A stretch of 64,000 nt of DNA from Candidatus Iainarchaeum sp. (GCA_017609625.1 JAFCDN010000004.1:948-64947), one strand, 5' to 3'; counted from the first letter of the stretch, positions 16,214 to 28,029 are shown. The notes: a model not told the origin generated them from the letters alone. Program-made: numbers and translations.

Positions 16214-16357
16214 TGGACCCTGCGGGACTCGAACCCGCGGCCTCCACAAATTAAGCTCTGCCAAAATATCAACTTTTAGAAAAGTTGCCAATGTGGCGCT
16301 TTCTGGGTTGCAAAACAAAAATTGTTTCCCAACTCTACCAGGCTGAGCTAAGGGCCC
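16214..16357 (-). tRNA. tRNA-Ala (anticodon GGC) with two introns
   Basis: GGGCCCT acceptor pairs with AGGGTCC with a G3:U70 pair. Exon 1 is GGGCCCTTAGCTCAGCCTGGTAGAG. A ~34-nt intron in the D arm (about 24/25) precedes CGCCACATTGGCA(A). A ~36-nt intron lies at 37/38. The gene ends TGTGGAGGCCGCGGGTTCGAGTCCCGCAGGGTCCA. Confidence 0.65.
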
Positions 16358-23830: not shown

Positions 23831-24526
23831 TTAAAGGTTTCTTATTTCGACTTTTTCAAAAAACGGCTCTAAAAGTTTTTTTAATTCCAGCAATTCTTCA
23901 GAAGAATAAGGTTTTTTGTTTTCAAATTCTGGATCAACTAAAGGGCCTTTATTGCTGTACTGCTGTAAAGCAAAAAGTTTTGAAGAATTCAGCCATTCAC
24001 CGATTTTTACTGCATCTTCTTTGGAAAAAAACTCTGGAATAACTGTACAGCGGAATTCATATTCCAAGCCTGAATTTTTTATTAATTCAACGCTTTGTTT
24101 TATTTTTTCTAAATCAATTTCCACTCCGCAGATTTCAGAATACTTTTCTAAAGAAGTTTTGATGTCCATTGCAATATAATCCACAAGTTTTTTTTGGATT
24201 AATTCTTTCAGCATTAAAGGATTGCTTCCATTAGTATCAAGCTTTACTTCAAATCCAAAGGATTTGATTTTTGCACAAAATTCTGGAAGGTCTTTCTGTA
24301 AAGTAGGTTCCCCGCCTGTAATGCATACTCCATTCAGCCATTTTTTTCTTGATTCAAGGAAAGAAAAAAATTCTTCTTCTGCAACTGCGTTTTCTGAATC
24401 AAAAGAAATCAAAGAAGGATTCTGGCAGAAACCACAGCGGAAATTACAGCCTGCAGTAAATACAGTGCACCCAACTCTTTTTGGAAAATCAATTAAAGTT
24501 GTTTTTTGAATTCCTTTTAAAATCAT
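23831..24526 (-). CDS. nrdG: anaerobic ribonucleotide reductase activating protein (radical SAM)
   Basis: CNFRCGFCQN CxxxCxxC radical-SAM cluster motif near the N-terminus; adjacent to nrdD; start placed at MILKG, with the track ORF extending to 24565. Confidence 0.75.
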   Translation of the reverse strand: MILKGIQKTTLIDFPKRVGCTVFTAGCNFRCGFCQNPSLISFDSENAVAEEEFFSFLESRKKWLNGVCITGGEPTLQKDLPEFCAKIKSFGFEVKLDTNGSNPLMLKELIQKKLVDYIAMDIKTSLEKYSEICGVEIDLEKIKQSVELIKNSGLEYEFRCTVIPEFFSKEDAVKIGEWLNSSKLFALQQYSNKGPLVDPEFENKKPYSSEELLELKKLLEPFFEKVEIRNL

Positions 24527-24571
24527 AAAAAAAACCTGAGAAAAATAGAAAGAAAAAAAGTCCAAAGGACT

Positions 24572-24606
24572 GTTTTTGGCAACTTGCCTTTTGAAAAAAG
24601 GCAGTC
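24572..24606. promoter_or_regulatory. conserved motif GTTTTTGGCAACTTGCCTTT plus palindrome TGCCTTTT-gaa-AAAAGGCA
   Basis: lies between the nrdD 3' end and the nrdG start; a near-identical 20/21 copy is at 35892-35912. Confidence 0.4.
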
Positions 24607-24775
24607 AGCAGTCACATTCAGCCTGGTTTTTGAAAGAGCTTTTCATTGTTTTTTCTTCGTTGTATGCTACTCTATCTTTAAATTCTTCTTTTTTTCCTAT
24701 ATTCCAGTTCTGAACCGGCCTGAAATAGCCGACAATTCTGGAATAGGTTTCACATTCTGCATTGCATTTAGTCAT
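24605..24775 (-). CDS. glycyl-radical C-terminal domain of NrdD as a separate +1-frame ORF
   Basis: 56-aa ORF MTKCNAECETYSRIVGYFRPVQNWNIGKKEEFKDRV has the NrdD C-terminal signature: Cys pair, RxxGY glycyl-radical motif, and NxGKxxEFxDR. Its ATG overlaps the nrdD TGA stop in an ATGA arrangement. Confidence 0.6.
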   Translation of the reverse strand: MTKCNAECETYSRIVGYFRPVQNWNIGKKEEFKDRVAYNEEKTMKSSFKNQAECDC

Positions 24776-27700
24776 TTTACCACCTCTTTTACTTCAATTT
24801 TTTCATTACTTTGAGAAGAAGATTCTGCTATCTCATGGGGACATTGGAAATGTTCTCCTTTAACATAACCATGAACTGGACAAACACTAAAAGTCGGAGT
24901 AATAGAATAATAAGGCAATTTTGTATTTTCTGCAATTTTTTTCACTAATTGTTTGCATGCTTCTCCGTCAGAAACTTTTTCTCCTAAAAAAGTATGAAAG
25001 ATTGTTCCTCCAGTATATAAAGGCTGAATCTCATTTTGGTGCATTATTGCTGTAATTGCATCTTCTGTATGGCCTACAGGCAATTGAGAAGAGTTTGTTA
25101 AATATGGATTATCTTTTCCTGCAGTGTAAATTTCCGGGTGAAACTTTTTGTCTAACCTTGCCAGTCTGTAAGAAGCAGACTCTGCTGGAGTTGCTTCCAA
25201 ATTATATAAATTCTTAGTTTCTTTCTGGAACTCAAAACATTTGTTTCTCATAAAAGTCAAAACTTCTATTGCAAAGTTTTTTCCTTCTTCTGAAGCAATG
25301 TCTTTTCCTAAAAAGTTTACGCAAGCTTCATTCATTCCGCATAAACCTATAGTGGAAAAGTGATTGTCAAAAGTTCCTAAATAAGCTTTAGTAAAAGGCA
25401 TTAAATTGTTTTTCAGATTTTTGTTTATTATTTTTCTTTTAATCTCTAAAGAAGTTTTTGCTAAATTCATATAATATTCTAGTTTTTCAAAAAACTCTTC
25501 TTTTGCGTCTTTCTGGTTTTTGCTCAAACTTTTCTCAAAAGTTTGTTTTGCTTCAAACCCAATTCTATTCATGTTAATTGTTATTACTCCAATTGAACCA
25601 GTTGCGTCTCCCGGACCCCACATTCCTCCAGGTCTGTTGATTAACTGGGAAGTGTCCATATTTAGTCTGCAGCAGTTGTGGGTTATTGTTCCAAGCGAAT
25701 GAACAAAACGATGATTTTCTTCCAGTTCAATATCAAAGAAAAATATTTCATCTGAAAACATGACTTTCTCTACATTAGTTATTTCAATTGGATAAACATT
25801 ACTATCCCCAAGCTTTTTTGTCAGTTCTGTGTGAGCACCATAATACTGTAAAGTCATTAATCCTACTTTACGGGTATTGTATAATCCAGGAACTTTATAA
25901 GTATTAACTTCCCATGAAGGCACTTTTTCATAAAGAGGAGGACTTCCAAGCCGGTTGTCGAGCATTCTTTCCTTGCCGTGTTGAACAGTTATTACTTGGG
26001 AATTTTCTCTTTCTCTGAATGTCACTGGTTTTCCAATCAAGTGGTAAAGCAATACAAGCTCTCTTGCCAGCATAGGGTCATTTATGTGTATTTCTCCACG
26101 CTTTTCATAACCATCCCCAAGGAAAAAACCATTCAAAAAAGATTCTATTATGTATTTTGGAGAATTCCATATCTGTGGCGGTATTTTGCCATACTTTTTA
26201 AGACCTGCTTTTGCCAGTTCTCTGGAAATCTGCGAATTATAAAAATATGCATAAAATGCATTATATCTCGGGTCTTTTCTGGTTTTTGCATTTACTCCAA
26301 ACTTTTTTTCTGCAAGCGTTATTATTTCATCTGCATAATAATTTTTGTTGCTTGGGAACGTGAACTGCATTCCTTTTTCCAAACCAAAAGTTGAAATGTT
26401 TTTTCTGTTTTCATAAAGAAAATTTCCATCTGCAATAAAAAAACCAAGAAGCTTTGCCATTTCTTCATCAATTTCCTGCAACCCAATCTTTTGCTGTTCA
26501 GATGAAAGGCATGTTTCTGCTGACTTCACACTAAATAAAAATTCGCCACTAGAAAGGGACACAGCAGGTTTTTCTGTTATTCCCTGTGGCGTGAGAACTG
26601 ATACAGGGTGTGTTGGAGTCACTCTTATTGACTTGCCATCTCTTGTTTTAATCACTACCATTTCATTCCCAGCAGTCTTTACAATATTTTTTATTGGTTT
26701 CCACTCAAGTTTCAATGTTTTTTGATTCAAAGACATTACTTTAATTTCTGCGCTTAACTCACTCCATCCATCAAAATCAAATTTTAAGGCATAATTTGAT
26801 GATAATTCTCCAATAGAAGTTTTTTCAATAATTCCGTCTTTTTTGATTAAAAGTTCTTCTTCAGGATGCAAGCACATTGCTCTAATGCTTTTTGGATCTA
26901 AATCAGAGCCAACATAATTCTGGAAATAAGGAATTCCATATTTTGCTGTTACATCAAACAATAGTTTTGCGTTTTCTGAATCCCAATTAAAACTTTTTGT
27001 TAGGTTGTATGTTGGGATTGGAAAAGTAAATATTCTTCCATTTGCATCTCCATCCTGCATTACTTCCAAAAAAGCTTTATTAACCATGTCAACTTCTTTT
27101 TGTAAATCTCCATAAGTGAATTCCTGTTCTTTTCCTCCGACAATTGCTTTTTCTTCTCTCATGTCTTCTGGAACAGTCCAATCAAATGTAAGGTTAGAAA
27201 ATGGATATTGACTTCCCCATCTGCTTGGAATGTTTAAAGAATAAACTAATTCCTGCATGCATTGTTTGACTTGTTTGTAATCCAGATTGTCTGTTCTGAC
27301 AAAAGGAGCAAGTAAAGTATCAGTAGAAGAAAATGCCTGTGCACCTGCAAACTCCATCTGTAGGCATCCAATAAAATTCACCATCTGATGAACAACCACC
27401 CCTAAATGTTTTGCTGGTTTTGCATCAACTTTGTTTGCCACTCCGCCAAAACCTCTAATTAGCAAGTCTTTCAAAGACCAGCCTGCACAATATCCAATAA
27501 ACCCATGGCTTAAATCATGGATATGAATATGCCCTTTTCTATATGCATCGCTTACTTCCTGAGGATAGATTTGAGTTAAAGCATAGTTTGCAATAACTTT
27601 TCCTGCAGTATGCAACAACAAGCCAGAAAAAGAATATGCTTCATTAGAGTTTTCATTTACTCTCCAGTCATCTTGTCTTAAATATTCATTGATTGTGTGT

Positions 27701-28029
27701 TCTACATCAATAAAAGTGTCTTTCATTTCTCTTATTTTTGCCTGCTGCTGCCTGTACAAAATATAAGCTTTTGCAGTTTTTGCATGGCCTTCTTCTATTA
27801 GAACTTTTTCTACTATGTCTTGGATTTGTTCAACTGAAGGAATATCAGATGCAGAATCAAACTTAATTCTTACAACAAAAACAACTTTTTTTGCAATCTT
27901 TCTTGCTGTTTCAATATCACTGCCTCCAACGCTTTGGGCAGCCTTAAAAATAGCTTGTGCAATCTTTTCTTCATCAAAAGAAACAGTCTGCCCGTTTCTT
28001 TTTTTTATTGACTTAAAATATTCTGCCAT
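24772..28029 (-). CDS. nrdD: anaerobic ribonucleoside-triphosphate reductase (class III) with intein
   Basis: 1085 aa; N-terminal ATP-cone-like region, class III RNR core, C-terminal CPVHG...CPHE; LAGLIDADG intein inserted in the core. Confidence 0.85.
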   Translation of the reverse strand: MAEYFKSIKKRNGQTVSFDEEKIAQAIFKAAQSVGGSDIETARKIAKKVVFVVRIKFDSASDIPSVEQIQDIVEKVLIEEGHAKTAKAYILYRQQQAKIREMKDTFIDVEHTINEYLRQDDWRVNENSNEAYSFSGLLLHTAGKVIANYALTQIYPQEVSDAYRKGHIHIHDLSHGFIGYCAGWSLKDLLIRGFGGVANKVDAKPAKHLGVVVHQMVNFIGCLQMEFAGAQAFSSTDTLLAPFVRTDNLDYKQVKQCMQELVYSLNIPSRWGSQYPFSNLTFDWTVPEDMREEKAIVGGKEQEFTYGDLQKEVDMVNKAFLEVMQDGDANGRIFTFPIPTYNLTKSFNWDSENAKLLFDVTAKYGIPYFQNYVGSDLDPKSIRAMCLHPEEELLIKKDGIIEKTSIGELSSNYALKFDFDGWSELSAEIKVMSLNQKTLKLEWKPIKNIVKTAGNEMVVIKTRDGKSIRVTPTHPVSVLTPQGITEKPAVSLSSGEFLFSVKSAETCLSSEQQKIGLQEIDEEMAKLLGFFIADGNFLYENRKNISTFGLEKGMQFTFPSNKNYYADEIITLAEKKFGVNAKTRKDPRYNAFYAYFYNSQISRELAKAGLKKYGKIPPQIWNSPKYIIESFLNGFFLGDGYEKRGEIHINDPMLARELVLLYHLIGKPVTFRERENSQVITVQHGKERMLDNRLGSPPLYEKVPSWEVNTYKVPGLYNTRKVGLMTLQYYGAHTELTKKLGDSNVYPIEITNVEKVMFSDEIFFFDIELEENHRFVHSLGTITHNCCRLNMDTSQLINRPGGMWGPGDATGSIGVITINMNRIGFEAKQTFEKSLSKNQKDAKEEFFEKLEYYMNLAKTSLEIKRKIINKNLKNNLMPFTKAYLGTFDNHFSTIGLCGMNEACVNFLGKDIASEEGKNFAIEVLTFMRNKCFEFQKETKNLYNLEATPAESASYRLARLDKKFHPEIYTAGKDNPYLTNSSQLPVGHTEDAITAIMHQNEIQPLYTGGTIFHTFLGEKVSDGEACKQLVKKIAENTKLPYYSITPTFSVCPVHGYVKGEHFQCPHEIAESSSQSNEKIEVKEVVK
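25675..26873 (-). mobile_element. intein with LAGLIDADG homing endonuclease domain in NrdD (boundaries +/- 2 nt)
   Basis: begins at the Cys in IRAM|CLHPEEELL (block A); TPTHP block B; LAGLIDADG-like motifs LLGFFIADGNF and LNGFFLGDGY; ends ...SLGTITHN|C. Confidence 0.75.

Follow-up and report, generated by a model that had tools for sequence, protein, structure and literature searches.

A probable two-subunit class III ribonucleotide reductase whose radical glycine is encoded by a separate, overlapping gene in Candidatus Iainarchaeum sp.

Introduction

In glycyl radical enzymes (GREs), the radical glycine is buried in the catalytic barrel yet is reached by a separate activase, and how this happens is a long-standing question. 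To our knowledge, this glycine is located on the catalytic chain in every GRE characterised so far. In class III ribonucleotide reductase (RNR), a cysteine of the active-site loop is catalytic. The canonical enzyme, NrdD with its activase NrdG, has been described for phage T4, Thermotoga maritima (4COI/4U3E) and Prevotella copri (8P23), and combines a barrel, an ATP-cone and a cysteine loop with a metal site, an RxxGY loop, an NWNxGKxEEF tail and an adjacent activase. Counterparts of all of these are found at the nrdD locus considered here, and the same chemistry is presumed. The locus lies in a stretch of 64,000 nucleotides (nt) from Candidatus Iainarchaeum sp. (GCA_017609625.1 JAFCDN010000004.1:948-64947), which is called the window as a whole and in which positions are counted from the first letter. 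Unlike in canonical NrdD, the glycine, the candidate fourth metal ligand and the tail are carried here by a separate chain of 56 amino acids (aa), and the break falls inside the second knuckle of the metal site. No description of a class III RNR with its glycine in trans was found in the searchable full-text literature, a scope that leaves outside most subscription journals and RNRdb.

The best-known small protein with a glycyl radical domain (GRD) is YfiD/GrcA. When GREs are damaged by oxygen, the chain is cut at their radical glycine, and PFL can be restored by a spare GRD protein (PMC8683613). YfiD/GrcA is activated by the cognate activase and works docked on the large GRE (PMC8683613), and the protein described here resembles it in being a small, stand-alone GRD protein. 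However, GrcA duplicates a GRD that its partner already has and acts only after damage, whereas the large subunit here has no GRD. Moreover, the small protein is homologous to NrdD (PF13597), and its gene overlaps and directly follows that of its partner; a Pfam scan at E <= 0.01 gave PF13597 only, with no match to Gly_radical (PF01228). The GrcA-like spare part proposed in an initial annotation of this DNA is therefore apt as far as a stand-alone GRD protein is concerned, but not as a spare, since the large subunit has no glycine of its own.

Small Cys-rich, metal-binding polypeptides are also found on the catalytic subunits of other GREs, namely HPAD (gamma), BSS (beta and gamma) and MASS (beta, gamma and delta), which are the only ones with small subunits in a 2026 review of GREs (PMC13450708). 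In contrast to the protein described here, these bind Fe or Fe-S clusters, and the radical glycine is never part of them (PMC13450708). Among RNRs, the split class II enzyme NrdJa + NrdJb has its C-terminal Cys-rich metal-binding domain encoded in an adjacent gene, and its relatives are fused (PMC5704485, PMC3653736); this class depends on B12, however, and its separated domain handles reducing equivalents and not the radical cofactor. In Aeromonas phage Aeh1, an RNR catalytic gene is split as well, the pieces of this nrdA reassembling to an active enzyme (PMC2988022), and phage nrdD genes can be interrupted by introns, inteins or homing endonucleases (PMC3653736). Those cases are sporadic and caused by mobile elements, whereas the junction described here has no mobile element and occupies a fixed structural position in hundreds of cellular lineages.

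Organization of the nrdD locus

The features of the locus are as follows.
24772..28029, minus strand: gene of the large (catalytic) NrdD subunit, a 1085-aa precursor with a 685-aa extein
25675..26874, minus strand: 400-aa intein with a LAGLIDADG homing-endonuclease domain, residues 386-785 (matches to Intein_splicing, LAGLIDADG_3 and TIGR01445/TIGR01443)
24841..24882, minus strand: putative half metal site of the large subunit, assigned by homology, Cys1050-x2-His1053-x9-Cys1063 (C-P-V-H-G-Y-V-K-G-E-H-F-Q-C)
24775..24837, minus strand: variable hydrophilic C-terminal tail of the large subunit (HEIAESSSQSNEKIEVKEVVK), including the ribosome-binding site of the small gene
24780..24786, minus strand: Shine-Dalgarno-like GAGGTGG, 4 nt (TAAA) upstream of the small ATG and inside the end of the large open reading frame (ORF)
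24772..24775, minus strand: ATGA in which the stop of the large ORF (TGA) and the start of the small one (ATG) overlap, the latter ORF being in the -1 frame
24605..24775, minus strand: gene of the small subunit, 56 aa, about 6.6 kDa

The large ORF ends in ...CPHEIAESSSQSNEKIEVKEVVK (in its longer form …FSVCPVHGYVKGEHFQCPHEIAESSSQSNEKIEVKEVVK), followed by the TGA stop at 24772-24774. The small ORF is translated as MTKCNAECETYSRIVGYFRPVQNWNIGKKEEFKDRVAYNEEKTMKSSFKNQAECDC; it opens with MTKCNAECETYSRIVGYFRPVQNWNIGKKEEFKDRV..., and the N-terminus of its product reads (M)TKCNAECETYSR. Relative to the large ORF, the small one is read in the -1 frame (equivalently +2), as its ATG begins a single base ahead of the TGA. 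Given that the small start overlaps the large stop, the two are probably coupled in translation and made in similar amounts.

The large ORF is identified as NrdD by NF006126 (965 bits, cut-off 548) and TIGR02487 (461 bits, cut-off 326), with an N-terminal ATP-cone at about residues 7-97 (27739-28011; Pfam, 81 bits). Of the 562 positions of the Pfam model NRDD (PF13597), this ORF covers those up to 526 (542 bits), and the small ORF matches positions 526-562 (E = 5e-11); the same tiling is seen with NCBIfam NF006126. As the two ORFs tile the profile (1-526 and 526-562), no segment of the family is missing or duplicated. In a single-chain class III RNR the RxxGY loop is part of the barrel polypeptide, but the large ORF stops at position 526 of 562, ahead of it. 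A six-frame scan found the sole R-x-x-G-[YF] motif of the window in the small ORF, from which the radical glycine of the large NrdD must therefore come. The radical loop of the small protein is R13-I-V-G16-Y17, with the Gly16 codon at 24728-24730, and is followed by an NWNxGKxEEFxDR segment and a C-terminal tail ending in C-D-C.

The initial annotation had already placed both ORFs at these coordinates, with lengths of 1085 and 56 aa, the TGA stop and the ATGA overlap, and our analysis, which puts them on the minus strand, bears this out. It had also located the essential glycine outside the main ORF, and the RxxGY loop and the GK/EF/DR tail on the 56-aa ORF; both hold, RIVGY being found on that ORF only and the NWNxGKxEEFxDR segment within the NRDD 526-562 match. 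Its label of a +1 frame for the small ORF was wrong.

The intein, which had gone unremarked in the initial annotation, is inserted in the active-site cysteine loop (SIRAM|CCRL), and its boundaries are C386 and HN785|C786. Exactly the sequence of the spliced extein junction, SIRAMCCRLNMDTSQLINRP (SIRAM|CCRLNMDTSQLINRP), is found uninterrupted in L002, a relative that lacks the intein and shares 82% identity overall. The cysteine loop is thus whole once the intein is removed, and as its junction is the same as in an uninterrupted relative, the catalytic subunit looks intact. No insertion is present in L002, whereas L003, another relative, has one of about 300 aa elsewhere, between extein residues ~272 and 273. 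In the closest relative on a long contig, L001 (GCA_024277355.1), the large nrdD was called as ORFs of 582 + 91 aa upstream of the small gene (L001:3952-5997), and the two pieces reflect either an extra break or an assembly frameshift.

Conservation of the split

A protein search with the small protein found 340 homologues, many more than chance would yield. Every one of the 120 listed is a stand-alone protein 41-86 aa long, at 52-96% identity. Among the matches listed, several lie on contigs of 100-526 kb, with Micrarchaeota, Diapherotrites and unclassified archaea as the named sources. No exact copy of the 56-aa protein was found in the contig index, and relatives were used in its place; P0001 is an independent copy with 96% identity. 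Nearly all small homologues start 1-4 residues ahead of the core C-x3-C-E-[VT]-Y-S-R-[IV]-V-G-Y-F-R-P-V-x-N-W-N-x-G-K-x-E-E-F. When 1.84 billion representatives (50% identity) were searched exhaustively with a profile, 4845 matched at E <= 1e-3, and among the best 150 of these, 136 are clean Met-initiated proteins of <=120 aa without a remnant of the large subunit. The split layout is common to hundreds of archaeal and bacterial lineages. Neither Pfam nor NCBIfam has a dedicated model for the small protein, which matches only the last ~38 positions of full-length NrdD models.

Some members of the family have additional features. In P0243, a small representative of 66 aa, the EVYSRVVGYLSPVSHWNEGKKEEW segment is internally duplicated, giving two Gly loops. 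A C-terminal Cys, CxC or CxxC at the extreme end is common in small subunits and in fused relatives (here …AECDC, 24608-24616, minus strand), and the fused relatives P0128, P0130, P0151, P0190 and P0235 have a redoxin-like extra C-terminal domain with CxxC. These sequences hint at a thiol-based reductant route, in which a mobile tail ending in Cys would shuttle electrons.

The initial annotation had suggested comparing nrdD 3' ends in related genomes, and in this comparison the split recurs while the junction differs each time. In L001, an in-frame TAA plus one codon separates the large and small ORFs; in L002, the two overlap by 8 nt with the small ORF in the +1 frame; and in L003, there is a 47-nt gap with a stop directly before the small ATG. 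About 20 further split loci came from a scan of contigs of species-representative genomes, which covered at least 80 loci and is a biased sample from which the prevalence of split versus fused forms is not derivable. Across the split loci, the distance from stop to start varies from -20 to +169 nt, and each of the three frame relations occurs. Tails of the large subunit in relatives vary from 2 to 40 residues and are not conserved in sequence.

In spite of this variation, the small ORFs keep their own initiation signals. Of 26 split loci, 25 have a GGAG/GAGG core between -20 and -3 of the small ATG, whereas such a core occurs in 10.6% of random 18-nt windows. Furthermore, the core of the small ORF has a pN/pS of 0.10-0.25 (Nei-Gojobori), with synonymous sites near saturation. 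Altogether, the split is real, conserved and widespread.

Break point and metal site

Relatives were searched with a query in which the last 250 residues of the large ORF were joined to the small ORF, and they fell into two shells. The nearer shell, with 65-87% identity and only about 75% of the query covered, is made up of split large subunits that end in C-P-x-H-G-Y-x2-G-E-H-x2-C-P and a hydrophilic tail that is short and variable. The second shell, at 52-67% identity and 92-100% coverage, consists of fused NrdDs of Aenigmarchaeota, Woesearchaeota, Nanoarchaeota, Hadarchaeota and various bacteria, with the consensus P-T-F-S-x-C-x2-H-G-Y-x2-G-E-x3-C-P-x-C-G-x2-[C/T/A/S]-E-V-Y-S-R-I-V-G-Y. When the two are aligned, split large subunits stop after C-P and small subunits open at x-C.

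The half-site of the large subunit aligns with C-x2-[H/C]-x9-C-P-x-C of the fused proteins and is kept in all split large subunits examined. Cys1050, His1053 and Cys1063 are thus predicted to be metal ligands by homology to the structural Zn site of the NrdD GRD (PMC11226230), and a ligand role is suggested for the His in second position because Cys replaces it in some fused relatives (CPNCGY, Omnitrophota). In the small protein, Cys4 (codon 24764-24766) aligns with the last Cys of the second C-P-x-C knuckle of fused relatives, so that the fission lies between the third and fourth of the predicted ligands. The second Cys of the small C-x3-C is C, T, A, S or N in relatives; only the first takes the place of a metal ligand in the alignment, and to read the small ORF as carrying a second Cys pair was mistaken. 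A single-chain class III RNR has a four-ligand metal site on one chain, but here three candidates are on the large chain and Cys4 is on the small one, and the metal site may be shared in trans between the subunits.

Some fused relatives have insertions of 6-12 residues exactly at the break (P0123, P0125, P0142, P0143, P0158 and P0219), and much longer ones are found at this point in the fused L024, L070 and L076. These insertions could be precursors of fission or products of re-fusion, and the latter would be easy because only a TAA separates the in-frame ORFs in L001.

Distribution and phylogeny

The split form is not confined to DPANN. In archaea it is found in Nanoarchaeia, Woesearchaeota and Micrarchaeota, and in bacteria in Lentisphaeria/Victivallales, Thermoguttaceae, Desulfuromonadales, Anaerolineae and Muiribacteriota. 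In a neighbour-joining tree of ~286 aligned catalytic-subunit residues upstream of the break, monophyly of all split forms was recovered in 0 of 100 bootstraps, and no union of two split groups was ever recovered. A Lentisphaerae/Thermoguttaceae split clade and a Desulfuromonadales split clade were each found in 100 of 100 bootstraps. Deep nodes of the tree are weak, and the clade of the window reached 53 of 100. A sister relationship between the window clade and L024, a fused form with an insertion, appeared in the first neighbour-joining tree; it was unsupported (bootstrap 7 of 100) and was not relied on. We conclude no more than that changes between the fused and the split form took place more than once at one position, in whichever direction.

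Proposed two-subunit enzyme

The locus very probably encodes a functional two-subunit class III RNR, with a large catalytic subunit and a separate 56-aa subunit that bears the radical. The observations behind this reading are the two cistrons, the ribosome-binding site, the conserved split, purifying selection, the tiling of the profile, the intact extein and the synteny with nrdG described below. As the large subunit lacks its own glycine, the small protein would be an obligate subunit. In solved structures, the GRD of NrdD has a structural Zn2+ site, a buried Gly loop and a surface tail, and it is highly mobile and moves roughly as a rigid body (PMC11226230), which makes a detachable GRD physically plausible.

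In the proposed enzyme, the large chain would provide the ATP-cone, the catalytic barrel, from which the intein would splice out, and the first three ligands (Cys, His, Cys), and the small chain would provide the fourth ligand (Cys4), the buried RIVGY loop and the surface tail. On docking of the small subunit, Cys4 would complete the half-site in trans and the Gly loop would enter the barrel beside the CCRL cysteine loop. NrdG would then generate the glycyl radical on Gly16 of the small subunit, and catalysis would afterwards proceed as in single-chain NrdD.

Several points weigh against this reading. Co-translation, assembly in trans, activation by NrdG and activity are what we infer from the locus and its relatives, all of which are metagenome-assembled. 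The idea of a shared metal site is drawn from alignment, and a full CPxC is present on the large subunit in L003, L030, L062 and P0161, in which the conserved Cys of the small protein comes four residues later. Completion of the metal site in trans is therefore not universal. In addition, the A_AAA_TGA of the window could in principle permit an occasional -1 slip, which would yield a fused chain beside the separate product.

A more tentative extension of the two-subunit reading, which we regard as possible but not as the likelier case, is that the small protein is an exchangeable radical cartridge. NrdG would activate the small subunit, possibly off the enzyme; after cleavage by oxygen at the glycine, the small subunit would be replaced and the large one spared; and fission would have been selected repeatedly in archaea and bacteria. 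This is suggested by the recurrence of the split at the same site in unrelated lineages, although recurrence could equally mean that the loop is structurally permissive. It is also suggested by three tandem 206-nt units between the large nrdD and nrdG on a Lentisphaeria chromosome (CP091727.1; L045:3487-4104). The later units are 98% and 76% identical to the first, and each carries a 41-aa small GRD gene with its own ribosome-binding site; this array comes from a long-read assembly, however, in which the large gene shows apparent frameshifts, and the window itself has a single small copy. Orphan small genes, for which neither a large NrdD subunit nor NrdG is encoded within about 3.5 kb, are a further point in favour (L027, L042, L053, L059 and L083, from Lentisphaeria/Victivallaceae). 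The one at L042 has AAA_24 (Sak4-like) and DUF669 genes on its two sides, which is a phage-like setting, and L083 is a second locus on the chromosome of L045, where a small-like N-terminus continues into a 155-aa ORF. In sequenced phages, however, only ordinary fused NrdDs were found, for example in MT835493.1 (802 aa), and no stand-alone GRD minigenes. The evidence for exchange is thus purely circumstantial.

Alternative explanations

Of the three explanations given in the initial annotation, a genuinely split RNR, with its glycyl radical segment supplied by a coupled downstream cistron, is strongly supported by the conserved split, the homologues and the Shine-Dalgarno sequence with its ATG. 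The same split recurs in independent assemblies with variable junctions, and this refutes the two remaining explanations, an indel from sequencing or assembly and a conserved programmed frameshift.

A programmed frameshift, in the -1 direction on A_AAA_T, would give a single-chain NrdD with a 20-residue linker. The last codons of the large ORF in the window are GTA AAA TGA, and a -1 slip of tRNA-Lys onto A-AA would put the ATG in the A site; the product would equal the plain concatenation of both ORFs, and it would probably fold, as fused relatives with 6-12-residue or longer insertions at the break exist. However, relatives share neither the slippery context nor the frame relation, the small ORF being in frame 0 in L001, in +1 in L002 and 47 nt downstream in L003, with gaps of up to 169 nt elsewhere. 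The downstream ORF has initiation signals of its own in 25 of 26 loci, an ATG with an upstream GGAG/GAGG core, and small ORFs that start within 1-4 residues of one position fit initiation and not slippage. We therefore give the frameshift only a slim chance.

Still less probable is a decaying or pseudogenised nrdD of which the small ORF is a non-functional remnant. DPANN genomes are reduced, and the large gene of L001 was called in two pieces, as might be expected from decay. However, the small ORF is under strong purifying selection, as seen in its pN/pS and its saturated synonymous change, and its start codon and ribosome-binding core are kept at all but one of the loci compared, in archaea and bacteria alike. 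The large extein is intact, nrdG is retained and the window has no second GRD.

An indel that breaks an ordinary single-chain nrdD is highly improbable. A single-base error would produce such an overlap, and the junction adjoins an A4 run. Nevertheless, the split is found in many independent assemblies, studies and phyla, with differing junctions and frames and with gaps containing stops; the window's own protein has a 96%-identical independent copy (P0001), and 136 distinct 50%-identity clusters are small proteins. Moreover, if the frame were repaired in the window, the chain would still contain an insert of 20 residues with no homology to the canonical fused relatives.

Joining of the two products by a split intein through protein trans-splicing, which the conventional intein already hosted by nrdD in this lineage might bring to mind, can practically be dismissed. 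Intein matches (Pfam, NCBIfam) are confined to residues 383-786, and the junction is free of intein motifs. The large subunit ends in a short hydrophilic tail (2-40 residues) without sequence conservation, and in the small protein only 3 residues precede conserved NrdD sequence, too few to accommodate the halves of an intein. Two separate subunits thus remain the preferred reading of the locus.

Neighbouring genes

Two features lie downstream of the small gene.
23831..24526, minus strand: nrdG, radical SAM activase (TIGR02495 NrdG2, 224 bits, cut-off 131; matches to Radical_SAM and Fer4_12)
24559..24571, minus strand: terminator-like hairpin AGTCC-TTT-GGACT followed by T7, within the 78-nt spacer between the small gene and nrdG

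The nrdG gene adjoins the small gene on its downstream side, and the order large-small-nrdG is kept in the relatives that were fetched with their flanks (L001-L003). Its start is likely the ATG at 24526, which gives 231 aa, and not the TTG at 24565 used in the mechanical call; NrdG of relatives has 231-232 aa. The hairpin may possibly cause partial termination between the small gene and nrdG, although terminator-like sites in the scanned region number 4 versus 2.7 expected and the hairpin alone is not significant.

Elsewhere in the window, an Rfam tRNA match of 41 bits and 144 nt (16214-16357, minus strand), which ARAGORN did not call, probably represents an archaeal tRNA with an intron. The window also has an aIF5A gene, recognised from its translation and from the IF5A-like_N annotation on the syntenic gene of L001. 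These two features give the window an archaeal character, as does its synteny with L001, a metagenome-assembled genome of DPANN type in which MCM, MetRS and aIF5A surround the same nrdD operon.

Significance

The enzyme class itself is well known, but a natural enzyme with its GRD in trans would surprise specialists in GREs. It makes three matters directly testable, namely the access of the activase, the exchange of the radical subunit and the role of the metal site in docking. For annotation, the small gene is at present named only as an NrdD fragment, and as there is no family model for it, genomes with this form may be scored by pipelines as carrying a truncated or pseudogenised nrdD. For the evolution of the family, the locus is a clean case of a gene split (or rejoined) repeatedly at a single structural position, which falls within a metal-binding knuckle. 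The finding also bears on the repair of oxygen damage, as a built-in analogue of YfiD/GrcA. If the small subunit is indeed an exchangeable cartridge, it would be a cheap means of upkeep of an oxygen-sensitive RNR for anaerobes and perhaps for their prophages.

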